64,000 nucleotides of DNA from a virus: IMG/VR virus record IMGVR_UViG_3300033182_000991, positions 32,001 through 96,000 of that record; one strand, 5' to 3'. Each line of letters opens with the position of its first letter. Position 1 is the stretch's first letter. The position numbers and the translations under genes were made by a program. The notes beneath the pieces were generated by a model that was given only the letters and a program-made list of their open reading frames with translations, ran no database searches and was not told the origin of the DNA. This document shows positions 2,869-62,984 of the stretch, piece after piece.

Positions 2869-3117
2869 ATGACAAATTATACTTACTTGATAATCAAAAC
2901 GAACGAGGTTGATAAGGTTGATTTCAGCCAAGTCAGAGAGACATCATCTGAAACTTTGAGACATAGTTTGGATGATACAAAGACATTTATTAAGTGGGAT
3001 AATGAAACGCCAACTTTTGTGAATAATTTTGAATGGACGGACGGTCCTTATAATCATACACAAATAATTAATATTTTATCTACGGATGAATGGGTTGATA
3101 CTAATGGGCCGAGTTAA
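2869..3117 (+). CDS. Small conserved phage protein in the fibre cluster (possible chaperone)
   Basis: 82-aa ORF; stop overlaps the next start (taatg). Confidence 0.55.
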   Translation: MTNYTYLIIKTNEVDKVDFSQVRETSSETLRHSLDDTKTFIKWDNETPTFVNNFEWTDGPYNHTQIINILSTDEWVDTNGPS

Positions 3118-6100
3118 TGAAAGCAAGAATATTTCAAATATCTGATTCCGCAAATCCCCTAAAGATTTATGTAATCTCTAAGTTCAATGAAGGATTGGAT
3201 GTGAATTCCAATGCGGTTATTGATGCAAAAGGGCAATGGGTAGGTCCAATCACCAACCTTAAAGGTCTTAAGGGTGAGAAGGGTGATTTGGGTAACAAAG
3301 GTATTAAAGGAACTCAAGGTACCACTGGTGGAGGTGGTGACAAAGGTCTTAAAGGTAATAAGGGTCTTAAGTTCGGTAAGGGTCACAAAGGTTTAATTGG
3401 TGATAAGGGTATCAAAGGTCGTAAAGGTCTTGTTGCCGATAAAGGTCCAACAGGTACAACAGGTACAGGAACAAAAGGTACTCAGGGTCCTGTAGGTGAT
3501 TCAGTTCAAGGTTCTACAGGTCCTACGGGTTCAGCATTTATTGGTCCAACAGGTGGAGGAGGAGACCAAGGTCCACAAGGTGGTCAGGGTTCTACGGGTC
3601 CGACGGGTGCTGCTGGTGATAAAGGACCTAAAGGTGTTAAGGGAGCCAAAGGTAGTAAAGGTATTAAAGGACCAACTGCTGGTAAGGGTTTGAAAGGTGA
3701 TACAGGTTCAACAGGTGCTGGTGGTGATAAGGGATATAAAGGAGCTGCAGGTACAGGTCCTAAGGGTCAGAAAGGTCCTCAGGGTAATTCGCCAATTGGT
3801 GCTAAAGGTCCACAGGGAAGTTCTCCTCGTGGTAACTTTGGTGGTCAAGGAAATCAAGGTGGACAAGGTGGTGTTGGTGACAACAATCCAGGTCCAAAAG
3901 GACCAATAGGTTCAACTAATCAGGGTCCTATTGGTGACCAAGGACCTACATTCCAAGGGTCTACAGGTCTTCAAGGTTCAGGTGGTCCTGGTGGTGACAA
4001 AGGACCTCAGGGTAATGATGGTCCAAAAGGACCTAAAGGATATAAAGGTGGTGTTGGTGCCAAAGGTATTAAAGGTACTAAGGGTTCTACTGGTCCTAAG
4101 GGTCTTAAAGGTAGAAAAGGTAATATTGGTACATCACCAATCGGTCCTCAAGGTCCACAGGGTTCTTCACCATTAGGACCAAGAGGAGGTCAAGGTGCAC
4201 AAGGAGCTGCCAATCCAGGACCTCAAGGTCCAACGGGTTCTTCCTTCCAAGGTTCAGGTGGTGACCAAGGACCGACAGGTCCACAAGGAAACGATGGACC
4301 TAAGGGTATTAAAGGTACCAAAGGTACGAAGGGTCTCAAAGGACGTAAGGGTGTAAAAGGTTACATCGGTGGTTCACCACAAGGTCCTATCGGTCCTCAA
4401 GGAGCATCTCCACAAGGAGGTCAGGGTAATCAGGGACCTCAGGGTGATGCGAATCCAGGCCCAACAGGACCAACAGGTTCTTCATTTACAGGGGACGGTG
4501 GTGACCAAGGTCCAACTGGACCGACAGGGAACGATGGACCGAAGGGTCCAAAAGGTTACAAGGGAACCAAAGGATTAAAAGGACGTAAGGGTGTGAAGGG
4601 TTACATTGGTGCATCACCTCAAGGACCTATTGGTCCACAAGGTGCATCTCCACGTGGTCCACAAGGTGCAAGAGGTGGTACAGGAGCATCCAACCCAGGT
4701 CCTCAGGGTCCGACAGGTCCGTCATTTACAGGTAGTGGTGGTGACCAAGGTCCGGTAGGTCCACAAGGAAACGATGGTCCAAAAGGACCTAAGGGTATCA
4801 AAGGTGGTGCCGGAGCCAAAGGTTATAAAGGTCACAAAGGTTACAGAGGGACATCACCTCAAGGACCTCGTGGTGCAACAGGTGCGTCTCCCCAAGGTGC
4901 ACAGGGTGCAAGAGGTAATACAGGTTCTGCTAATCCTGGTCCAACAGGTCCAGGTGGTTCGGCTAACCCAGGTGCTCAGGGACCTGGTGGTGATAAAGGT
5001 CCGATAGGTAATGATGGGGCTAAGGGTTACAAAGGTACTAAAGGAGCCAAAGGTCATAAGGGATATAAAGGACCTAAAGGTTATGTTGGTAGTTCACCAC
5101 AAGGACCTATTGGTCCACAAGGTGCATCACCACAGGGTCCACAAGGTGGTCAAGGTCCTCAAGGGGCTAATAATCCAGGTCCAAAGGGACCTACAGGACC
5201 GGCGTATCAAGGTCCAATAGGGCCTGGTGGTTCAGGTGGTCCAACAGGTTATGACGGTCCAAAAGGACCTAAGGGTATAAAAGGACCAACTGGTCCTCAG
5301 GGTGATAAAGGTTTCAAAGGAAACATTGGTAATTCACCAAGAGGTCCATTCGGACCAACAGGTGCATCTCCACGAGGACCACAAGGTAACAGAGGTGGAA
5401 CAGGTGCTGGTAATCCTGGTCCTCAGGGTCCAGGTGGTTCTGCATTCCAAGGTAGTGGAGGTGCTCAAGGACCGACAGGACCACAAGGTAACGATGGACC
5501 AAAAGGTCCTAAAGGTTATAAAGGTGGTACTGGTGCCAAAGGATATAAAGGTCATAAGGGATATAGAGGTACTTCACCAACAGGTCCGAGAGGTGCACAA
5601 GGTGTATCCCCACGTGGTAATACAGGTGCACGTGGTGTTACAGGAGCTAATAATCCAGGACCAAAAGGTCCTGTTGGACCAGCATTCCAAGGAGATAAGG
5701 GTTACACTGCTCCTGATGGTGCAAAAGGTTACAAAGGACTCAAGGGTAGAAAAGGCCATAAAGGATATATTGGAGGTTCTCCATTAGGTCCACGTGGTTC
5801 GGCAGGTGCATCACCGAGAGGACCACAAGGTGCGGCTAATCCAGGACCAACAGGTCCAGGAGGTTCGGCCTTCCAAGGTGATAAGGGACCTACAGGTAAT
5901 GCAGGTGCTAAAGGTTACAAAGGACTCAAGGGTAGAAAAGGTCATAAAGGATATATTGGTACATCACCGAGAGGTCCACAAGGTAATCAAGGGGCATCTC
6001 CGAGAGGTAACCAAGGGTCAGCCAATCCAGGTCCGAAGGGACCTAAAGGGTATAGTAATCCTGGTTCAACAGGGCCTACAGGTTATGATGGTCCAAAGGG

Positions 6101-6905
6101 TCCTAAGGGTATTAAAGGGTCTAAGGGACACAAGGGATATATAGGTAATTCTCCTCAAGGTCCGAGAGGTGCCACAGGTGCTTCTCCACGAGGAGGTGGA
6201 GGTGATACAGGACCTGGTGGTTCTAATAATCCAGGACCAAAAGGTTATAAAGGTGCTGCGGGTTATGGTCCTATCGGATTACAAGGTAATAGAGGGGCGA
6301 CAGGTCCACAAGGTTCACCTGGATTAGAACCAGGTGAAGACGGTTCAACAGGTTCAACAGGTTTCCAAGGTCCAGCGAGTAACGCTAAGGGTCCTAAGGG
6401 TCCCAAAGGACCTAAAGGTTACATTGGTAATGCCCCTAAAGGTCCAAGAGGTCCTGCGGGTTCAACGGGTTCATCGGCGGTTGGTGCAAAGGGTCCTATT
6501 GGTTCAACGGGTGCTCAAGGTAACCAAGGTGGTAGAGGACCTCAAGGTGCTAAGGGTTATAGAGGTCCTCAGGGTCCATCATCGGATGAGAGATTAAAGA
6601 CAAACATCAAAGGATTGAAAGGTAACCTTTCTAAGTTGTTGTTATTGAAAGGTCTTTACTTTGATTGGAATGATGATGAGTTTACTACAAATTATCTGAA
6701 TGGTATTAAGGGTACCTCTATTGGTTTCGTTGCGCAGGAGGTTGAAGAAGTATTGCCTGATGTGGTTGAAAGAGACCCTCAAGGTGTGATGGGTGTGGAG
6801 TATGATATTATGTCAGTAATTGCCTTAGGTGCTCTCCAAGAACAACACACGAGAATACTTATGTTAAAGGATAGAATAAACAATTTGAAAGAGTTGGTTG
6901 ACTAA
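3117..6905 (+). CDS. Long collagen-like fibre protein with C-terminal S74 chaperone
   Basis: About 1100 aa of interrupted Gly-X-Y, followed by SDERLKTNI...GFVAQEVEEVLPDVV. Confidence 0.9.
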   Translation: MKARIFQISDSANPLKIYVISKFNEGLDVNSNAVIDAKGQWVGPITNLKGLKGEKGDLGNKGIKGTQGTTGGGGDKGLKGNKGLKFGKGHKGLIGDKGIKGRKGLVADKGPTGTTGTGTKGTQGPVGDSVQGSTGPTGSAFIGPTGGGGDQGPQGGQGSTGPTGAAGDKGPKGVKGAKGSKGIKGPTAGKGLKGDTGSTGAGGDKGYKGAAGTGPKGQKGPQGNSPIGAKGPQGSSPRGNFGGQGNQGGQGGVGDNNPGPKGPIGSTNQGPIGDQGPTFQGSTGLQGSGGPGGDKGPQGNDGPKGPKGYKGGVGAKGIKGTKGSTGPKGLKGRKGNIGTSPIGPQGPQGSSPLGPRGGQGAQGAANPGPQGPTGSSFQGSGGDQGPTGPQGNDGPKGIKGTKGTKGLKGRKGVKGYIGGSPQGPIGPQGASPQGGQGNQGPQGDANPGPTGPTGSSFTGDGGDQGPTGPTGNDGPKGPKGYKGTKGLKGRKGVKGYIGASPQGPIGPQGASPRGPQGARGGTGASNPGPQGPTGPSFTGSGGDQGPVGPQGNDGPKGPKGIKGGAGAKGYKGHKGYRGTSPQGPRGATGASPQGAQGARGNTGSANPGPTGPGGSANPGAQGPGGDKGPIGNDGAKGYKGTKGAKGHKGYKGPKGYVGSSPQGPIGPQGASPQGPQGGQGPQGANNPGPKGPTGPAYQGPIGPGGSGGPTGYDGPKGPKGIKGPTGPQGDKGFKGNIGNSPRGPFGPTGASPRGPQGNRGGTGAGNPGPQGPGGSAFQGSGGAQGPTGPQGNDGPKGPKGYKGGTGAKGYKGHKGYRGTSPTGPRGAQGVSPRGNTGARGVTGANNPGPKGPVGPAFQGDKGYTAPDGAKGYKGLKGRKGHKGYIGGSPLGPRGSAGASPRGPQGAANPGPTGPGGSAFQGDKGPTGNAGAKGYKGLKGRKGHKGYIGTSPRGPQGNQGASPRGNQGSANPGPKGPKGYSNPGSTGPTGYDGPKGPKGIKGSKGHKGYIGNSPQGPRGATGASPRGGGGDTGPGGSNNPGPKGYKGAAGYGPIGLQGNRGATGPQGSPGLEPGEDGSTGSTGFQGPASNAKGPKGPKGPKGYIGNAPKGPRGPAGSTGSSAVGAKGPIGSTGAQGNQGGRGPQGAKGYRGPQGPSSDERLKTNIKGLKGNLSKLLLLKGLYFDWNDDEFTTNYLNGIKGTSIGFVAQEVEEVLPDVVERDPQGVMGVEYDIMSVIALGALQEQHTRILMLKDRINNLKELVD
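4281..5720 (+). repeat. 240-nt (80-aa) coding super-repeat in collagen gene 2
   Basis: The GND/GYD-G codon block recurs at 4281, 4521, 4761, 5001, 5241 and 5481. Confidence 0.9.
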
Positions 6906-9900
6906 TGGCAAAGAACATTAAAATAACACCGAAAAGTGGTATCATTGAATTCTCAGGTGCTACGAGTTCATCAATTGATTTGGGACACAATGAGAGTTCT
7001 GATGAGTTGAAGTTCTCAGGGTCATCATTAGACCCTGTTAGGTTAACGGTTAAAGGTGGTTATACATTCAACTCTGACTCTAAGGTATTGGTTGAAAATA
7101 GTGGTGAGGTTCTATCTAAAGGTCAAAAGAGAATTGATAAAGGTGGTGTATGGCAAGGACCGAGAGCTCAGGATAAGGGTATTAAAGGTTTCAAAGGTAC
7201 TAAAGGACCAAATGCTGTTACTGCTGAAACGGGTGATAAGGGTTACCGTGGTACTCAGGGTACTATTGGTGCCAATCAAGCCGTAGGTACAAGAGGTAAT
7301 CAAGGACCACAAGGAGGTATTGGTTCTCAAGGACAAAAAGGTATTAAAGGACCTGCGGGTGGTGTAGGTTCAACAGCCGACCCATCACCAGCGGGTGATA
7401 AAGGACCTACAGCACCAAAGGGACCTAAAGGTTATAAGGGTACAAAAGGTGCTAAAGGTGGTGCTGGTGACAAAGGTCAGAAAGGTAATATCGGTAATAA
7501 GGGTATTAAAGGTATTGTCGGTACATCTCCGAAAGGTTTTATTGGTCCACAAGGTTCTTCCCCACAAGGTGAGAAAGGACCTCAGGGAGACTCTCCTAAG
7601 GGTATTAAAGGTGTTAAAGGTACTAAGGGTGACCGTGGTGGTTCTGGTACTGGTGGTGATAATAACCCAGGTGCTCAAGGACCTGTCGGTGATTCAGTAC
7701 AAGGTTCAACAGGACCAACTGGTATCTCTGTTCAGGGACCTGCGGGTTCACAGGGTCCAACAGGGCCAGGTGGTGATAAGGGACCTATTGCTCCTGATGG
7801 TGCAAAAGGTTTCAAGGGTATCAAAGGAACTACAGGTGACAAAGGTATAAAAGGTATCAAAGGGGTTAAAGGTGACAAGGGTTACAAAGGACCTAAAGGT
7901 ATTAAAGGACACAAAGGTTTTATTGGTTTATCACCTCAAGGACCAAGAGGTGCCACAGGTGCATCACCTATCGGACCGCAAGGACCACAAGGAGCCTCAC
8001 CAATTGGACCACAGGGTGGTCAGGGTGGACAAGGTAATGCAACACCAGGTCCTGAAGGTGATTTAGGTTCAGCGTTCCAAGGTAGTGGAGGTGCACAAGG
8101 ACCGACAGGACCACAAGGTAATGACGGTCCAAAAGGACCGAAAGGTTATAAAGGGTCTGAAGGATTGAAAGGTCGTAAAGGTATTAAAGGTAATATCGGT
8201 AACTCACCTATTGGTCCACAAGGACCTCAAGGGGCATCCCCTCAAGGTGCTCAGGGTGCAAGAGGTAATACAGGTGCTGCTAATCCAGGTCCTCAGGGAC
8301 CAGGTGGCTCTGCTAATCCTGGTGCTCAAGGACCTGGTGGTGACAAAGGACCGACAGGTAACGATGGAGCAAAAGGTTACAAAGGTACTAAGGGAGCCAA
8401 AGGACACAAAGGTTATAAAGGTAACAAAGGTTTGAGAGGTAATTCTCCTGTGGGTCCACGTGGTGGTACAGGTGCATCACCTCAAGGTGCTCAAGGTAAC
8501 AGAGGTGGTACAGGTGCCCCTAATCCAGGTCCAAAAGGACCTATCGGTGATACAAATCAGGGTTCTACAGGTCCTCAGGGTTCTGGTGGTCCAACGGGTT
8601 ATGATGGACCAAAAGGACCTAAGGGTATCAAAGGTCCTAAAGGGTTGAAAGGACGTAAAGGGGTTAAAGGTTACATCGGAACATCTCCACAAGGACCTAT
8701 TGGTCCACAGGGTGCGTCACCAAGAGGACCACAAGGTGCGAGGGGTGGTCAAGGAGCTGCTAATCCTGGTCCAACGGGACCTACAGGTTCTTCATTTACA
8801 GGTAGTGGAGGTGACCAAGGGCCGGTCGGACCACAAGGTAATGACGGACCAAAGGGACCTAAGGGTTACAAAGGTGCTTTGGGTGCTAAAGGTCTTAAAG
8901 GTAGAAAAGGTAATATCGGTAATTCGCCAAGAGGTCCACAGGGACCACAAGGAGCATCACCACGTGGTAACACAGGTGCTCGTGGTGTGACGGGAGCCAA
9001 CAATCCAGGTCCTCAGGGTCCAGGAGGGTCTTCATTCCAAGGTAGTGGTGGTGCTCAAGGACCTACAGGTCCAGGTGCTGGTGACGGTGCAAAAGGTTAT
9101 AAAGGTATAAAGGGTTCTCTTGGTGCTAAAGGTTATAAAGGTCATAAGGGATATAGAGGAGCTTCTCCTCAGGGTCCTATTGGTCCACAAGGTTCATCAC
9201 CTAAAGGTTATAGAGGTCCACAAGGTGTTCAAGGAGCAACTAATCCAGGTCCTAAAGGTCCTGTGGGTTCAACGAATCAAGGCTCAACGGGTCCACAAGG
9301 TTCAGGTGGACCGACAGGATATGACGGTCCAAAAGGACCTAAGGGTATAAAAGGACCTAAAGGGTTGAAAGGACACAAAGGTTATAAGGGTAACATAGGT
9401 AACTCACCACAAGGACCTATCGGTCCACAAGGGGCGTCACCAAGAGGTAACCAAGGTGCGAGGGGTGGTCAAGGAGCTGCTAATCCTGGTCCTACAGGTC
9501 CTACAGGTTCTGCATTCCAAGGTTCAACAGGACCTCAAGGTCCTACTGGGCCAACTGCGGGCGATGGTGCAAAAGGTTACAAAGGTCTTAAAGGTATAAA
9601 AGGGCATAAAGGTTATACTGGTTCTTCACCACGAGGACCGCAAGGTGCTCAAGGGGCTTCCCCAAGAGGTAATACAGGTGCTGCCAATCCGGGTCCAAAA
9701 GGTCCTAAAGGATATAGTAATCCTGGTGATAAAGGACCTACAGGTAATGATGGTGCAAAAGGTTACAAAGGACTTAAGGGTAGAAAAGGACATAAAGGTT
9801 ACATCGGTAATTCTCCAAGAGGTCCTCAAGGGTCTCAAGGAGCGTCTCCAAGGGGACCGCAGGGTGCTGCCAACCAAGGTGGCACAGGTCCTACAGGTTC

Positions 9901-10840
9901 TGCATTCCAAGGGTCAACAGGTCCTCAAGGTAACGACGGAACAAAAGGTCATAAGGGATATGTAAATACTAAAGGTCATAAGGGTTATAGAGGGGGTTCA
10001 CCACAAGGACCTATCGGTCCACAAGGTGCATCCCCGAGAGGGGGACAAGGTTCTGCTAATCCAGGTCCTACAGGACCAGGTGGTTCGGCATTCCAAGGAG
10101 ATAAAGGTCCACAAGGTCCAAAAGGTCCGACAGCACCTGATGGACCACGAGGTCCAACTGGAGCTACTGGTTCACCAGGACCTGAAGGGCCAATAGGTTC
10201 AACAGGACCACAAGGTTCTGTTGGTTCTCCAGGTGCTAATGGAGTAAAAGGACCAAAAGGTCCTAAAGGTGCACAGGGTTCTGCCGGTACAGGTGGTTCC
10301 ATAGGTTCTAAAGGTCCACGTGGTCCACAGGGTGCTGCCAATCCTGGTGGTACGGGTGACAAAGGTCCAAAGGGTCCTAAGGGTTACACTGCAACTGCTG
10401 CACCTGGTCCAAAAGGTCCTAAAGGATATATTGGTAATACTGGTGGTACGGGACCAGTAGGTGGTAGAGGTCCGATTGGTTCAACAGGTTCGTCAGGTTC
10501 TTCAGATAGAAGATTGAAGAAAAACTTCCGTGAAATCAAAGATGCATTGGATAAAGTATTGAAGATGCGTGGTGTTCACTTTACATGGGTTGAAGAGAAT
10601 ACTGTTGATGGTTCATATGTACCCACAGGTCAACAAGACATTGGTGTAATTGCACAGGAAATTAAGGAACAATTCCCTGAATTGGTAAGAGAAGAGGATA
10701 GTGGTATCTTAACTGTACAATACGCATTGATGGTTTCAATTTTGACTGAGGCTATTCAACAACAAAACTCAATTTTAGATAAGAAAGAGATTGAGTTAGA
10801 ACGTTTAGAAGTACTTGCGAAATCTAAAGGATTGTTATAA
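6905..10840 (+). CDS. Long collagen-like fibre protein with C-terminal S74 chaperone
   Basis: About 1100 aa of interrupted Gly-X-Y, followed by SDRRLKKNF...GVIAQEIKEQFPELV. Confidence 0.9.
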   Translation: MAKNIKITPKSGIIEFSGATSSSIDLGHNESSDELKFSGSSLDPVRLTVKGGYTFNSDSKVLVENSGEVLSKGQKRIDKGGVWQGPRAQDKGIKGFKGTKGPNAVTAETGDKGYRGTQGTIGANQAVGTRGNQGPQGGIGSQGQKGIKGPAGGVGSTADPSPAGDKGPTAPKGPKGYKGTKGAKGGAGDKGQKGNIGNKGIKGIVGTSPKGFIGPQGSSPQGEKGPQGDSPKGIKGVKGTKGDRGGSGTGGDNNPGAQGPVGDSVQGSTGPTGISVQGPAGSQGPTGPGGDKGPIAPDGAKGFKGIKGTTGDKGIKGIKGVKGDKGYKGPKGIKGHKGFIGLSPQGPRGATGASPIGPQGPQGASPIGPQGGQGGQGNATPGPEGDLGSAFQGSGGAQGPTGPQGNDGPKGPKGYKGSEGLKGRKGIKGNIGNSPIGPQGPQGASPQGAQGARGNTGAANPGPQGPGGSANPGAQGPGGDKGPTGNDGAKGYKGTKGAKGHKGYKGNKGLRGNSPVGPRGGTGASPQGAQGNRGGTGAPNPGPKGPIGDTNQGSTGPQGSGGPTGYDGPKGPKGIKGPKGLKGRKGVKGYIGTSPQGPIGPQGASPRGPQGARGGQGAANPGPTGPTGSSFTGSGGDQGPVGPQGNDGPKGPKGYKGALGAKGLKGRKGNIGNSPRGPQGPQGASPRGNTGARGVTGANNPGPQGPGGSSFQGSGGAQGPTGPGAGDGAKGYKGIKGSLGAKGYKGHKGYRGASPQGPIGPQGSSPKGYRGPQGVQGATNPGPKGPVGSTNQGSTGPQGSGGPTGYDGPKGPKGIKGPKGLKGHKGYKGNIGNSPQGPIGPQGASPRGNQGARGGQGAANPGPTGPTGSAFQGSTGPQGPTGPTAGDGAKGYKGLKGIKGHKGYTGSSPRGPQGAQGASPRGNTGAANPGPKGPKGYSNPGDKGPTGNDGAKGYKGLKGRKGHKGYIGNSPRGPQGSQGASPRGPQGAANQGGTGPTGSAFQGSTGPQGNDGTKGHKGYVNTKGHKGYRGGSPQGPIGPQGASPRGGQGSANPGPTGPGGSAFQGDKGPQGPKGPTAPDGPRGPTGATGSPGPEGPIGSTGPQGSVGSPGANGVKGPKGPKGAQGSAGTGGSIGSKGPRGPQGAANPGGTGDKGPKGPKGYTATAAPGPKGPKGYIGNTGGTGPVGGRGPIGSTGSSGSSDRRLKKNFREIKDALDKVLKMRGVHFTWVEENTVDGSYVPTGQQDIGVIAQEIKEQFPELVREEDSGILTVQYALMVSILTEAIQQQNSILDKKEIELERLEVLAKSKGLL
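8111..9600 (+). repeat. 240-nt (80-aa) coding super-repeat in collagen gene 3
   Basis: The equivalent block recurs at 8111, 8351, 8591, 8831, 9071, 9311 and 9551. Confidence 0.9.
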
Positions 10841-22221: not shown

Positions 22222-22609
22222 TAATGTTGTATGGGACGATAAACTTCAAAAGTATAACGCTTCTTTATTACCTTACTCCACTAATGTTAGTGGGCCAGTC
22301 ATCAAGTTAGATGATGTAGGTGCATTCAAAGAAAGGGGTGTTAACAGAGTTCAAAAGACCTTCAGTGCGAAATATAAAGAATTGGTTGATGAATACAATC
22401 ACCTCATCAGTGAAGTAGAACTGAATGAGATGATTTATAATTCAAATTATTCTTTTGAACCTGTTATTGGTGAAATTTATCATTTGTATATTAGAAATAA
22501 TGGAAAATATTTCTTATCTTTGATATCTCCACGAGAGTGGAATATGGAATACATAACATCAGTAAGACTTAATTCAGAACATAAATGGGTTTCAACAAAA
22601 GATTTCTAA
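22202..22609 (+). CDS. DUF2452-like protein
   Basis: LPY.T...P, FEPVIGEIYHLY, FLSLISP.EW motifs. Confidence 0.65.
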   Translation: MKSKKPDNVVWDDKLQKYNASLLPYSTNVSGPVIKLDDVGAFKERGVNRVQKTFSAKYKELVDEYNHLISEVELNEMIYNSNYSFEPVIGEIYHLYIRNNGKYFLSLISPREWNMEYITSVRLNSEHKWVSTKDF

Positions 22610-25427: not shown

Positions 25428-26042
25428 ATGAGAAGATATAGAATGACTGAGTCAGAAAAGAAAAGGATATTAACTTTACATGAGACTGCCACAAAAAATG
25501 TATATTTGAGTGAACAGAGTAGTGAAGTTGACTTTGGGTATGGACATGAAGGTAAACCTGCTGGTCAAGAAGTGTTTGACCACATTAGGAGTTTTGAAAA
25601 GTTTGTTCCTTATGTTTATGATGACGCGGTTTTCCCATCAAAGCCTTATGACCCTAACTCAGGTAGTCCCAAGGGAACACTAACTATTGGTTATGGTACT
25701 ACTAACCCTGACATTATCCAAAAATATCTTAATAAAATGACTCAGGAAGAGGCAATGAGGCTTTCAGCTGAGGATATAAAAGACGCTGCGAAGACCGTTA
25801 AGGACTGGCAAAGTAAAGACCCTGAAAATCGAAAACTAACCAAGGGTATGTATATTGCTCTGATTGATATGGCGTATAATAGAGGTCGTACTAACTTCAT
25901 GCAGAGTGGGGTATTAAAACAAATCACAAAAGGAAATTATAAACAAGCCGCACAGGAAATATTAAATGGTAAAGGTATTTGGGGTCACCCAGAGAGATTG
26001 AAAAAAGACTATGAGATGTTCTGTAGAGACGGAGGTTGTTAA
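25428..26042 (+). CDS. Phage lysozyme (GH24-like muramidase) with N-terminal leader
   Basis: E..F....YDD, GTLTIGYG, ALIDMAYNRG, AAQEIL. Confidence 0.78.
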   Translation: MRRYRMTESEKKRILTLHETATKNVYLSEQSSEVDFGYGHEGKPAGQEVFDHIRSFEKFVPYVYDDAVFPSKPYDPNSGSPKGTLTIGYGTTNPDIIQKYLNKMTQEEAMRLSAEDIKDAAKTVKDWQSKDPENRKLTKGMYIALIDMAYNRGRTNFMQSGVLKQITKGNYKQAAQEILNGKGIWGHPERLKKDYEMFCRDGGC

Positions 26043-26053
26043 ATTATAGACAG

Positions 26054-27469
26054 ATGAAAACATTATTAAAAGAAACGGGTTTACGTAACATTGGTGAGTT
26101 AGCCAAAAGATATCCAAAGGCAAAGATTTACTTCCACCAAGATTTGGATGGGGTAACAACAGCTTTGGCGATGAAGAATTATTTGGAAGACAATGGTATC
26201 AAAGTGGTTGATGCTGAGATTATCCAATACGGTGATAAAGAGTTTGCGGTTAAGAAACAAGATGCCACGGGTGATACGATGCCAGTCTTAGTTGACTTTG
26301 CTCACGGTAAACCAATGTTCGTTATCCACACTGACCACCACGATAGTCAAAGTGGTGTTGAAGGTGATACCGCCACATCATTTAGACCTTCACGTTCAAA
26401 TGTTGCAACAATCTCAGATGTGATGTCACCAAAGGACATCTTTCCTGCTGACGATATTACTTTAATTTCAACTGTGGATTCTGCAGACTTTGCTAAGTAT
26501 GGATTGAAACCAAAAGATATTATGAACTTCATCTTTAGATTAGATAAAGATAAGTCGCTACAAAAGAATAAAATGGCTTTAGGTTTGGCCGCAAACAAAT
26601 TGATGTTGGCGTATAAGAACAAACCTGGTTTTATGGAGGAGTTGGTGATGACATCAAAACCATCATTGTTGAACATCTTCCAAAACATTAGAAGAATTGC
26701 TGACAGAGAAAACTATGCGTCTCCATTGATGATGGCTGCGAATCAAGAAGACTACATTGAGCAGAGAAATCAAGACCCGAACCTTAATTATAAAGATGGT
26801 ATCATTTACCAATACGGTGGAGGTAAGATGTTCAAACCAGGTTCATACGACAGATACACACCATTTGAATTACATCCTGACGCTGACTTCTTAATTACGG
26901 TTTGGCCGATGGGATTGGTTCAGGCATCATGTAACCCATTCAAAAAAGAAAGAGAGTTAAAAGGTGTGAACTTAGGTGAGATTGCTCAAGAAGTGTTGAG
27001 TAAGTGGGAACCTAAATTAAGAGAGAAGATTATTCCTTTATCAACCATCAAATGGATTTCTGAGAGTAGTAAACAATTTGGTGAGGATTCTGTAGGTTTC
27101 ACAAACGCAGATTTGGAAGCGTTCTACGGTAAGAAGATTAGAGGAATGGAAGGTGGTGACCAGTATATGGAAAACCTAAAACAAATTATGGATAAGAACT
27201 TCTCTGAGTTAAGTGAAGATGAAATGAAAGTGTTGGACAACTTGGGTGTTCCTGCTTGGGAGATGATTCAAGCAAACTCAGGTGGTCACAAATGTATTAC
27301 AAATATTTCAGCTCTTAACTACTTTGGTAGAAGTAACAGACCTCCTCAAGGTGGATACAAATATAACAGAGGTGGTGGAGATGCACCATACGTTAAGTTC
27401 GCTAAGATGATAGGACAGGAGTTCTATAGAATATTAAGGGAAAAGATTGACGGAAGTAAATCAGAATAA
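26054..27469 (+). CDS. DHH-family phosphoesterase-like protein
   Basis: HQDLDG, VLVDF, TDHHD, VDSAD, SGGH motifs. Confidence 0.72.
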   Translation: MKTLLKETGLRNIGELAKRYPKAKIYFHQDLDGVTTALAMKNYLEDNGIKVVDAEIIQYGDKEFAVKKQDATGDTMPVLVDFAHGKPMFVIHTDHHDSQSGVEGDTATSFRPSRSNVATISDVMSPKDIFPADDITLISTVDSADFAKYGLKPKDIMNFIFRLDKDKSLQKNKMALGLAANKLMLAYKNKPGFMEELVMTSKPSLLNIFQNIRRIADRENYASPLMMAANQEDYIEQRNQDPNLNYKDGIIYQYGGGKMFKPGSYDRYTPFELHPDADFLITVWPMGLVQASCNPFKKERELKGVNLGEIAQEVLSKWEPKLREKIIPLSTIKWISESSKQFGEDSVGFTNADLEAFYGKKIRGMEGGDQYMENLKQIMDKNFSELSEDEMKVLDNLGVPAWEMIQANSGGHKCITNISALNYFGRSNRPPQGGYKYNRGGGDAPYVKFAKMIGQEFYRILREKIDGSKSE

Positions 27470-27817
27470 TGAGAAGGAGACTTTGTCTCCTTTTTTTATG
27501 CCGAGTTGTTTTGTCATACCTGCTGGTAGTTCCAATACTTTATCACCATAACCAGTATAAGATTCACATTCCAACTCATCTTTACAGATAGGACAATTTT
27601 CGTGGATGGTATCTACTTCGTCGTTATTGATAAAAATAATATCCAAAGGAACAATACAATCAAACATCCAAAACGATTGTTCACCTTTGGTTGGCATCAA
27701 GAAATACATACCTTGAAACTCATCATTAAAACGCTGTCCTTGCATTCCTTTGGTGATGGCTTCTTTGGTAACACAAAGTTTAACTTTGATATCTGTATTT
27801 CCTATTGAAACTTTCAT
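27461..27817 (-). CDS. DUF192 family protein
   Basis: GMQG..GMYF..SFWM..C.VPLDIIFI..VLELPAG...GIKKGD. Confidence 0.85.
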   Translation of the reverse strand: MKVSIGNTDIKVKLCVTKEAITKGMQGQRFNDEFQGMYFLMPTKGEQSFWMFDCIVPLDIIFINNDEVDTIHENCPICKDELECESYTGYGDKVLELPAGMTKQLGIKKGDKVSFSLF

Positions 27818-27846
27818 ATACTTATAAATATCTAAACAATCATAAT

Positions 27847-28254
27847 ATGAATAAATACGGAGGAGTAATTGTAAGGTGTAACAATAAGGTATTGTTATGT
27901 AAAAGAAATGCTGAAGGCTCATTACCTGGTCATTGGTCGTGTCCGGCTGGTAGTGTTGAAGAAGGTGAAGAACCATTGAAAGGTGCGATGAGAGAGTTTT
28001 TTGAAGAAACTAACATCAAACTATTGAAAACGCCACAGTTTTGTGGTATAATTAAGAGAACCAATAGAGACGGTAGTGAGATTAAAGGTGAAATGTATTG
28101 TTACCTTTATGATTGTGAAGAAGAAGTATATCCTGATTTAGATAAAGCTAAGGACGGTGATGAACATACAGAATGTGGTTACTTCGGAAAAGACGAGTTA
28201 CCTTCTCCAATGACGGAACAATTTAATAAATTACTAAATATAATCTTAAAATGA
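27847..28254 (+). CDS. NUDIX hydrolase
   Basis: Nudix box GSVEEGEEPLKGAMREFFEETNI. Confidence 0.9.
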   Translation: MNKYGGVIVRCNNKVLLCKRNAEGSLPGHWSCPAGSVEEGEEPLKGAMREFFEETNIKLLKTPQFCGIIKRTNRDGSEIKGEMYCYLYDCEEEVYPDLDKAKDGDEHTECGYFGKDELPSPMTEQFNKLLNIILK

Positions 28255-28466
28255 GTTTAATGTATCAAGCCCTCGTAGCAAAATACGAAGCAGACCTTTT
28301 AGAAGCAAAGGCAACCTTAGAAGTTTACCTAAACAATTCAGTTGGTATTGGTGAACACCCTCAACACTTGGAAGAAATGGACAAGATGGTCGGGAGAATG
28401 GAATCTGCAAGTGGAAAATTAAAAGCGCTTAAATCTAATTTCAATGAAAAGGGTATGGCAATCTAA
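28251..28466 (+). CDS. Conserved phage hypothetical protein
   Basis: VGIGEHP motif within a helical 71-aa ORF. Confidence 0.6.
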   Translation: MSLMYQALVAKYEADLLEAKATLEVYLNNSVGIGEHPQHLEEMDKMVGRMESASGKLKALKSNFNEKGMAI

Positions 28467-28554
28467 CGAGCCACTAAGGAAACATTCAGGGTATTTCAAA
28501 CTATCTTATAACCCAATGGGTTACATCATAAAGGAAATGACCAAAAAAATTAAG

Positions 28555-28582
28555 AAAACTGCTTGACCGAGCAGTTTTTTTT
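28555..28582 (+). terminator. Intrinsic terminator
   Basis: aaaactgct-tgaccg-agcagtttt followed by a T run. Confidence 0.7.
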
Positions 28583-28665: not shown

Positions 28666-28697
28666 TTTGACACTTCCAAAAATATGTTTTAGATTTG
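28666..28697 (+). promoter_or_regulatory. Bacteroidota sigma-A promoter driving the large ncRNA
   Basis: TTTG (28666-69), N20, TAGATTTG (28690-97). Confidence 0.8.
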
Positions 28698-28701
28698 TCA
28701 A

Positions 28702-29530
28702 AGTTCTTTGAAATATTGGTCATGTTTATGGACCGACTTTTGTATTATCTCTTCGGAGATTATCCTTTCCAAAGGAGTTGGACATAGACAGACACGGCGG
28801 TTTAGCGTCGTTAGATAACCCCTGTGAGGGGACTAAAGGGATTGAAGCGGGATTAGTACACCGTGGATATTCGCAGTCGTGAGGCTGACAACTAAACAAA
28901 GTGGCTACGGCTGATTCCCCGAGGGCAACTGCTGGGGGGAAGAGGTTACTCTGAGTCCGTGGAATATCAGAGTTGAGATGGTGACATCAACAGGAAAAGC
29001 TACAGGTGACGGTTCGACACACTCTGCAAGGTGTCGTAGGGCTGGGTACCAGTCTGATGGGTTTCCGAGACGTTAAAGTCTACGAAGTCCTGACTGACCG
29101 TAAGTTTGCAGACTTACAGAGAGGTGTGAAGCATTCTGTTCTCCAAAGGAACGGACCTTCTCCCGAAGCACATCTTTCCTTCTTCCACAATGCTAATTTA
29201 ATTAATCAATTAAATACGAGCAAGAGTCTTCGGGCGTTGACAACGAAAGGTGTCTAAAACTCCGAGTGTAAACTAACGGAGTCATTGATAGACCGCAAGT
29301 CTTTCAATGTCAATTACAAAAGACCTGTTGGGACGGCCATCCCTTCATGAACTCGCAAGGTTCAACAGAGTTAAGTAGTAGTTGAGTAGTTGTTAACGAA
29401 TACGAGTGGTTAACGTAAGTAACCGACACTGACTTGATACGATAGGCAACTATTGTGGACAATGTGAGCAACCGACTATTAGGGTACACTCACGAAAGAC
29501 AGGTCACATAAACGTGTAGTCTCAGCGTTC
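28702..29530 (+). ncRNA. Large structured non-coding RNA (~830 nt), GOLLD/ROOL-like
   Basis: No credible ORF; GC higher than flanks; more than 10 hairpins, many with GNRA/UUCG loops; bounded by promoter and terminator. Family assignment not verified. Confidence 0.75.
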
Positions 29531-29552
29531 TATACCTCATATACCTTCCTTG

Positions 29553-29583
29553 ACCTCGGTGCTAACCCACCGAGGTTTTTTTT
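29553..29583 (+). terminator. Intrinsic terminator of the large ncRNA
   Basis: acctcggtg-ctaacc-caccgaggt followed by T7. Confidence 0.85.
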
Positions 29584-29632: not shown

Positions 29633-29920
29633 ATGAAGACAACTATGGTATTAGAAAGAAACATCAAAATCATCCACCCACAATTCGGAGAACTATTGAA
29701 CGACTTCTACAATGACGAGGTTCAGTTTAAGTTGTTCCTTCAGATGGTTCACTCTTGTGTGGAGTTGAAGCAGGACCTATCGTTCTTCAACGGTCGTGAT
29801 TTCTACGTTCATGTTCCTTACGAACTTCTTCGTCAATCCATCATCTTGGGTAATACTAAACCTCAGGAGGAATTGACTTTGGGTCAGTATGCTGTCCGTA
29901 AATCTAAGATGGAGGAGTAA
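29633..29920 (+). CDS. Hypothetical protein
   Basis: 95-aa ORF downstream of TATCTTTG (29617-24). Confidence 0.6.
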   Translation: MKTTMVLERNIKIIHPQFGELLNDFYNDEVQFKLFLQMVHSCVELKQDLSFFNGRDFYVHVPYELLRQSIILGNTKPQEELTLGQYAVRKSKMEE

Positions 29921-62792: not shown

Positions 62793-62849
62793 TTGAAATT
62801 CTTTATAAAATAATTATAACACAATATGTTTATGGGTAAACACCATTTG

Positions 62850-62923
62850 TGGGCCCTGTAGGGTTCGAACCTACGACCTAATGATTATGAGTCATTTGCT
62901 CTAACCGACTGAGCTAAGAGCCC
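62850..62923 (-). tRNA. tRNA with CAT anticodon, probably tRNA-Ile2 (lysidine type) rather than Met; CCA not encoded
   Basis: GGGCTCT/AGGGCCC acceptor stem, D arm TAGCTCAGTCGGTTAGAGC, AATGA-CTCATAA-TCATT anticodon arm, GTAGG-TTCGAAC-CCTAC T arm; promoter TTTG-N19-TATATTTG upstream (62962-62932). Confidence 0.92.
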
Positions 62924-62984
62924 CAACGGAACAAATATACTATAATATCTATGACGGTCAAACTAAAAATTTATATTTATTAGT

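Follow-up and report, generated by a model that had tools for sequence, protein, structure and literature searches.

A stand-alone, full-length GOLLD RNA gene with a boxA-like word in a large phage of a probable Bacteroidota host

GOLLD RNAs are usually described near or within tRNA arrays, and the family (RF02032) reportedly goes back to Weinberg et al. in 2009. The GOLLD RNA known as env-38 forms a protein-free, 380 Å cage of 14 subunits with D7 symmetry (PDB 9MEE; Kretsch et al. 2025, PMC12286853). In this cage the 5' domains form the caps, the 3' domains form the rings and the variable linker points inward; the assembly is held by A-minor contacts and kissing loops, among them the symmetric kissing loop L21a, which joins the two half-shells (PMC12286853). 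In S. agalactiae the GOLLD 5' domain is reduced and the cage has 12 subunits (PDB 9L0R; PMC12990946); the family is known to vary in this domain (PMC12286853). ROOL, another large RNA, forms an octameric RNA cage (PMC12286853).

Here we describe a GOLLD locus in a 64,000-nt stretch of viral DNA (the window), which comprises bases 32001-96000 of an IMG/VR virus record of 112,919 bp, rated 38% complete by CheckV. The unit at 28666-29583 (+) is a real, complete GOLLD RNA gene, an added member of a described family and not a new class; the GOLLD label itself is ordinary, and any Rfam scan would assign it. Taken as a whole, we read the locus with considerable confidence as a stand-alone, full-length GOLLD gene whose RNA would assemble into a cage and begin with a putative boxA, in a large phage that probably infects Bacteroidota. 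Its tRNA-free stand-alone layout, compact 5' domain and boxA-like start are modest variations, mainly for GOLLD specialists.

The transcription unit and its two domains

The unit is free of ORFs and consists of a promoter, ~880 nt of densely structured predicted RNA and a strong intrinsic terminator. Its left edge is set by the terminator of the upstream gene block, and the next gene lies at 29633-29920. The features, in window coordinates, are as follows.

28552..28581, + strand: intrinsic terminator closing the upstream NUDIX / phrog_1811 block (13-bp stem, then a T run)
28666..28697, + strand: Bacteroidota-type promoter (-33 element TTTG at 28666-28669, 20 nt, -7 element TAGATTTG at 28690-28697)
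28703..28718, + strand: boxA-like word GTTCTTTGAAATATTG, at the very start of the predicted transcript, 5 nt after the -7 box
28719..28792, + strand: leader of ~75 nt with small hairpins (GGUC/GACC at 28718-28734; UUCG-capped at 28747-28760)
28793..29118, + strand: GOLLD 5' domain, 326 nt, assigned by covariation and homology
29119..29528, + strand: GOLLD 3' domain, matching RF02032 over the full model
29335..29338, + strand: self-complementary GGCC in the hairpin loop GGGA-CGGCCA-UCCC, placed like L21a of env-38
29552..29583, + strand: the RNA unit's own intrinsic terminator (10-bp stem GACCUCGGUG/CACCGAGGUU to 29577, then U8)

A preliminary description of this DNA, made from its letters alone, had offered two proposals, a GOLLD-like RNA or a class not seen before, and had held that a strong GOLLD hit in a cmscan search would confirm the RNA and remove its novelty. 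The Rfam cmscan search, once run, returned RF02032 at 29119-29528 on the + strand with 292.3 bits and an E value of 1.5e-82, across the complete model (1-416 of 416) and against a gathering score of 150. The confirmation and the loss of novelty both follow, and of the two proposals the first stands, while the second falls to this match and to the homology of the 5' core presented below. A permissive Rfam scan of the region gave no second credible RNA family, ROOL being without a match even at E <= 1.

Because the RF02032 model represents the conserved 3' domain only, relatives were gathered for testing the 5' half. Two motif scans of IMG/VR yielded 210 loci, and nhmmer detected the 3' domain in 135 of them; among the first 119 pattern hits, some 57 proved fortuitous and lacked GOLLD. 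Seventy-one of the 135 loci (44 unique) align with the window across essentially all 887 nt and are referred to here as the clade. The consensus structure of a 38-sequence alignment comprises 202 pairs, and compensatory changes occur in 98 of these. A pairing proposed by RNAalifold between leader columns 105-109 and the terminator U-tract was rejected as spurious. Searched with blastn (word size 11), 50,697 GenBank phage records contained no match for the RNA, and the family was thus not found in cultured phages at detectable identity (65-70% or more); a BLAST search of 301 Flavobacteriaceae genomes, run without a positive control and therefore weak, gave none either.

The 5' domain taken alone (28791-29118) has 94 pairs, with 98.5% of alignment cells paired and 43 pairs showing compensatory change; none of 500 shuffles was as good, and slid controls gave 4-12 such pairs. 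Applied by iterated nhmmer to 87 unique regions upstream of GOLLD 3' domains, an HMM of the 5' domain recovers 86, of which 68 were recovered in the first round (including 21 of the 39 loci outside the clade). The matches span the first ~206 positions and lie at a consistent distance from the 3' domain. This recovery identifies 28793 to ~28997 as a common GOLLD 5' core and ~28998-29118 as specific to the clade.

These results bear on whether the RNA could be a new large ornate class that merely resembles GOLLD. Such a class would be in keeping with the restriction of the Rfam model to the 3' half, with a 5' domain shorter than that of env-38, with the absence of a nearby tRNA and with the finding that short env-38-like 5' motifs (<=6 mismatches) occur in none of the fetched loci. 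However, the match of the 3' domain spans the full model with a score almost double the gathering threshold, and homologues of the 5' core precede nearly all the unique GOLLD 3' domains; on these two grounds the idea was ruled out, and we consider it scarcely credible. The known variation of the 5' domain within the family also counts against it. A search for the clade motifs in the published GOLLD alignment, available as a partial, gapped copy that makes the comparison uninformative, gave no match.

Within the GOLLD 3' domain, the first hairpin (29119-29180) is followed by a variable AU-rich linker (J13/15, ~29181-29232) and a multi-helix core that extends to 29528. In the first hairpin, the loop AAA (29145-29147) shows no variation in the 38-sequence alignment. 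The linker varies in length and carries small insertions among relatives, and no tRNA was detected within it. In the GGCC-bearing hairpin, 31 of 37 unique clade sequences have GGCC at the loop centre; AGCU and GGCU each occur once and AGCA or CGCA four times, and the AGCU and GGCU variants preserve self-complementarity. By position rather than by structural alignment, this loop would correspond to L21a of env-38. Nine of the ten hairpins named in the preliminary description match helices of the alignment or of the Rfam consensus, and the tenth, GACA..GAAA..TGTC, is not a hairpin of the family model. At 29240-29255, the 5' half pairs over a long range, within the helix CGUUGACAAC/GUUGUUAACG, and GAAAGGUGUCUAA is conserved and single-stranded.

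The exact host-type promoter that had been claimed (TTTG-N20-TAGATTTG) is present in the bases, which can also be read as TTGACA-17-TAGATT (score 10/12). The window has 12 matches to TTTG-N18-22-TAnnTTTG where 2.7 would be expected (none of 100 shuffles gave as many), and a promoter of this pattern lies upstream in 31 of the 44 unique clade members. Judged from these elements, transcription should start at about A28701-A28702, directly ahead of GTTCTTTGAAATATTG. The strong terminator was likewise correctly described, with a 10-bp stem at 29552-29577 and eight T to 29583; its stem covaries (columns 986-1012 of the 38-sequence alignment), and a run of at least six T follows the 3' domain in 38 of the 44 unique members. 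The assignment to the + strand holds as well: the minimum free energy is -271.5 kcal/mol on this strand (z = -3.29, 0 of 20 shuffles as good), compared with z = -0.71 on the - strand.

ORFs of 83, 59 and 57 aa, the longest three, do exist in the region and could in principle encode one or more small proteins. They are open and in phase in only 1, 11 and 2 of the 38 aligned homologues, respectively, with stops or frameshifts breaking them in most, whereas the base pairs are kept through compensatory changes. This lack of conservation rules out a coding function, to which we give practically no weight, and agrees with the earlier statement that the region has no credible ORF.

The RNA might instead belong to the downstream 95-aa gene (29633-29920, +) as its long, structured 5' leader, resembling a riboswitch or an attenuator, rather than being independent. 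A homologue of this ORF does lie just 3' of GOLLD in 54 of the 71 clade loci and in 15 of the 64 other GOLLD loci. However, a strong, covarying intrinsic terminator with eight U stands between the RNA and the ORF, 13 of the 64 other loci have a same-strand tRNA within 200 nt downstream instead (tRNA-Met in 12), and phage relatedness is the simpler explanation of common neighbours. A leader function is accordingly very improbable. The unit is best described as a stand-alone GOLLD gene, as first proposed, with its own promoter and terminator, no adjacent tRNA and no interrupted gene.

Phage neighbourhood and separation from tRNA genes

The record carries phage-like genes for collagen/S74 fibre proteins, an endolysin-like protein, an M23 peptidase and the thymidylate synthase ThyA; a DNA methyltransferase and a NUDIX hydrolase are also encoded near GOLLD. 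Two adjacent giant proteins of 1262 and 1311 aa (3117-10840, +), with collagen triple-helix repeats and a C-terminal Peptidase_S74 chaperone domain, are probably tail fibres. A CHU_C type IX secretion domain, together with the promoter type, points to a probable Bacteroidota host. Two huge, unannotated "uncultured phage" genomes in GenBank (634,780 and 642,428 bp) encode proteins with 40-44% identity to the DHH-like neighbour (26036-27469). The contig is a fragment of a large phage, a distant relative of the published 630-640-kb GOLLD-carrying phages. In the unannotated 630-640-kb genomes LR745206.1 (L213; 420875-421280, 287 bits) and LR756502.1 (L214; 434685-435091, 275 bits), a GOLLD RNA is present. 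These two copies are divergent, were detected only with the covariance model and are flanked by tRNA or tRNA-like genes.

The block upstream of GOLLD (26036-28466) encodes a DHH-like phosphoesterase (a weak Pfam hit below the cut-off), a DUF192 protein, a NUDIX hydrolase and phrog_1811, and most clade loci keep it in synteny with GOLLD. Nucleotides and RNA ends are frequent substrates of DHH and NUDIX enzymes. The DUF192 protein (27461-27976, -) overlaps with its 5' end the annotated start of the NUDIX hydrolase (27805-28254). On the downstream side, the 95-aa ORF has no Pfam or PHROG match, and its adjacency to GOLLD may reflect phage relatedness rather than a functional link. Ahead of this ORF lies a palindromic, promoter-like sequence, GATAAGAAAATATTTCTTATCTTTG (29600-24). 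The word TTCTTATCTTTG occurs also at 22511-22522, with five hits at <=1 mismatch against 0.9 expected, and the palindromic element, as AAGAAA..TTTCTTATCTTTG, also forms the GOLLD promoter in some relatives (L018, L119, L011 and L058). Elements of the GATAAGAAAATATTTCTTATCTTTG type may represent a phage-specific class of promoter or operator.

The absence of an adjacent tRNA, claimed at the outset, is borne out: the only tRNA gene in the window is a tRNA-Met at 62849-62923 (-), which is the nearest, 33 kb from GOLLD. This lone gene has a TTTG-N-TAnnTTTG promoter of its own (62932-62962, -). The record as a whole has 20 tRNA genes, the remaining 19 forming one island on the - strand at record positions 105330-112882, outside the window and ~44 kb from GOLLD. 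All 71 clade loci, each 4-15 kb long, lack a tRNA, while 31 of the 64 other GOLLD loci have at least one; where some of the latter have the closely following same-strand tRNA noted above, the clade has the intrinsic terminator in its place. Since neither the clade loci nor the other GOLLD loci are independent samples, these counts describe a trait of the clade and are not statistics. A large tRNA-uncoupled clade, with 44 unique full-length members, nevertheless argues that tRNA linkage is not required for GOLLD's role.

A boxA-like word at the predicted 5' end

In rRNA operons, boxA works together with the Nus antitermination complex (NusB/NusE/NusA/NusG/SuhB), and its classical positions are the 16S leader and the 16S-23S spacer. 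Untranslated units of other kinds can also be preceded by boxA (Baniulyte et al. 2017, PMC5725501). In the window, GTTCTTTGAAATATTG fits the boxA consensus GYTCTTTAANA, which is gamma-proteobacterial, at 10 of 11 positions (PMC5725501). We found no publication linking GOLLD with boxA.

With at most one mismatch allowed, 71 of 86 unique GOLLD loci, from both groups, have the 11-nt word 40-130 nt ahead of the 5' core. Its density there is 8.3 per kb; in the remainder of the loci it is 0.04 per kb on the sense strand and 0.02 on the antisense strand, an enrichment of ~200-fold. The leader that follows it differs in sequence between subclades, while the boxA-like word and the 5' core on either side are fixed. 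In one subclade (L197, L157, L184, L202 and L144), the word reads GTTCTTACAC and is preceded by a small covarying hairpin, GATGAGAAATCATC / GGTGAGAAATCACC, an arrangement that resembles the boxB-boxA order of rRNA leaders.

In rRNA operons of Flavobacteriaceae, the 16S leader (-113 to -216) and the 16S-23S spacer each carry a closely similar word, GTTCATTGACATATTG. Across 14 Flavobacteriaceae 16S loci it gives 27 sense and no antisense hits, with leader and spacer both occupied in 13. The GOLLD word and GTTCATTGACATATTG agree at 14 of 16 positions and differ at two. The exact GOLLD 16-mer occurs in only 6 of 401 Bacteroidota genomes, and just one of the six sites is in an rRNA (16S-23S) spacer; an exact copy of the host rrn boxA is thus unsupported, and a near match is supported.

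Within the 113-kb record, GTTC[AT]TTGA[AC]A has three exact occurrences, all on the sense strand of non-coding RNA units: one heads GOLLD and two lie within the tRNA island, one of these directly after a TAnnTTTG box. The island words, in record coordinates, are listed below.

108659, sense: boxA-like word GTTCTTTGACA
106111, sense: boxA-like word GTTCTTTGAAA
110123, sense: boxA-like word GTTATTTGAAATATTGG, with one mismatch

On this evidence GTTCTTTGAAATATTG is probably a Nus-factor loading site that shields the long untranslated RNA from Rho, an assignment read from sequence and made with some reserve. In such a case the word would act at the RNA level as a boxA, recruiting host NusB/NusE, and the Nus-loaded RNA polymerase would resist Rho across the long untranslated RNA, as in rRNA operons. 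A possible, on balance doubtful, alternative is that the GTTCTTTGAAA word works at the DNA level, within the promoter or as the target of a DNA-binding protein from phage or host, or else is an RNA processing site. Its start only 5 nt after the -7 box in the window would suit a DNA element, as would the location of the exact 16-mer mostly outside rRNA operons in Bacteroidota genomes. However, promoter and word are 5 nt apart here and ~29 nt apart in the L057 group, a variation that tells against a promoter element, while word and RNA core are separated by 59-107 nt in every locus except one. The strand specificity of the word, its close fit to the consensus and the near-identical word in both the leader and the spacer of host-family rRNA operons likewise speak for a Nus-binding boxA.

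Extending the boxA assignment, we narrowly favour a model in which Bacteroidota phages, those of the tRNA-free clade among them, produce their GOLLD RNAs in the manner of rRNA, as stable-RNA units: a host-type boxA at the 5' end would recruit the Nus complex for antitermination and as a chaperone, the ~0.9-kb RNA would escape Rho and fold co-transcriptionally into a cage, and the tRNA island would use the same word. The conserved rRNA-type boxA-like start offers a testable account of how long untranslated phage RNAs are produced in hosts with Rho.

Proposed cage assembly and comparison with known systems

By analogy with env-38 and the S. agalactiae GOLLD, the two domains would fold separately and the RNA would self-assemble, without protein, into a dihedral hollow cage. 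A-minor contacts could be made through the AAA at 29145-29147 and symmetric kissing loops through the GGCC at 29335-29338, and the short AU-rich linker would face the cage interior. The AAA and GGCC loops lend support to the same kind of cage, without proving it; for the L20-J13/15 kissing loop, no counterpart was placed on this sequence. With a 5' domain ~90 nt shorter than that of env-38, the number of subunits is not predictable, and this naturally shortened cap domain could be used to test how the domain sets the subunit number of the cage. As to function, our best guess, held with low confidence, is that the cage acts on the translation apparatus during infection, in tRNA or ribosome handling.

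Like env-38 and other GOLLD RNAs, the RNA described here is phage-encoded and has a complete 3' domain, a two-domain layout with a variable linker, a 5' core common to other loci, and AAA and self-complementary loops placed where solved GOLLD cages make intermolecular contacts. Compared by eye, its start and that of env-38 have the same order of a hairpin, an A-rich joiner, a GNRA hairpin and a GAGGG(U/C)AAC motif; equivalence to the env-38 helices P1-P12, likewise judged by eye, is tentative. Unlike env-38, it has a 5' domain of 326 nt rather than ~420 nt. Unlike known GOLLD RNAs, it has no tRNA beside it or in the linker, has its own intrinsic terminator and a probable Bacteroidota host, and carries an extra leader of ~90 nt that starts with the boxA-like word.

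ROOL shares with it the character of a large, ornate phage or prophage RNA, and the RNA-only cage seen for ROOL is the form proposed here, whereas the two are unrelated in sequence and fold. In comparison with the rrn boxA, this copy of the word has no boxB hairpin before it (some relatives have one) and sits in a phage stable-RNA gene, not in an rRNA operon. Like the rrn boxA, it stands just after the promoter of a long untranslated RNA, and the same word recurs in the phage tRNA island.
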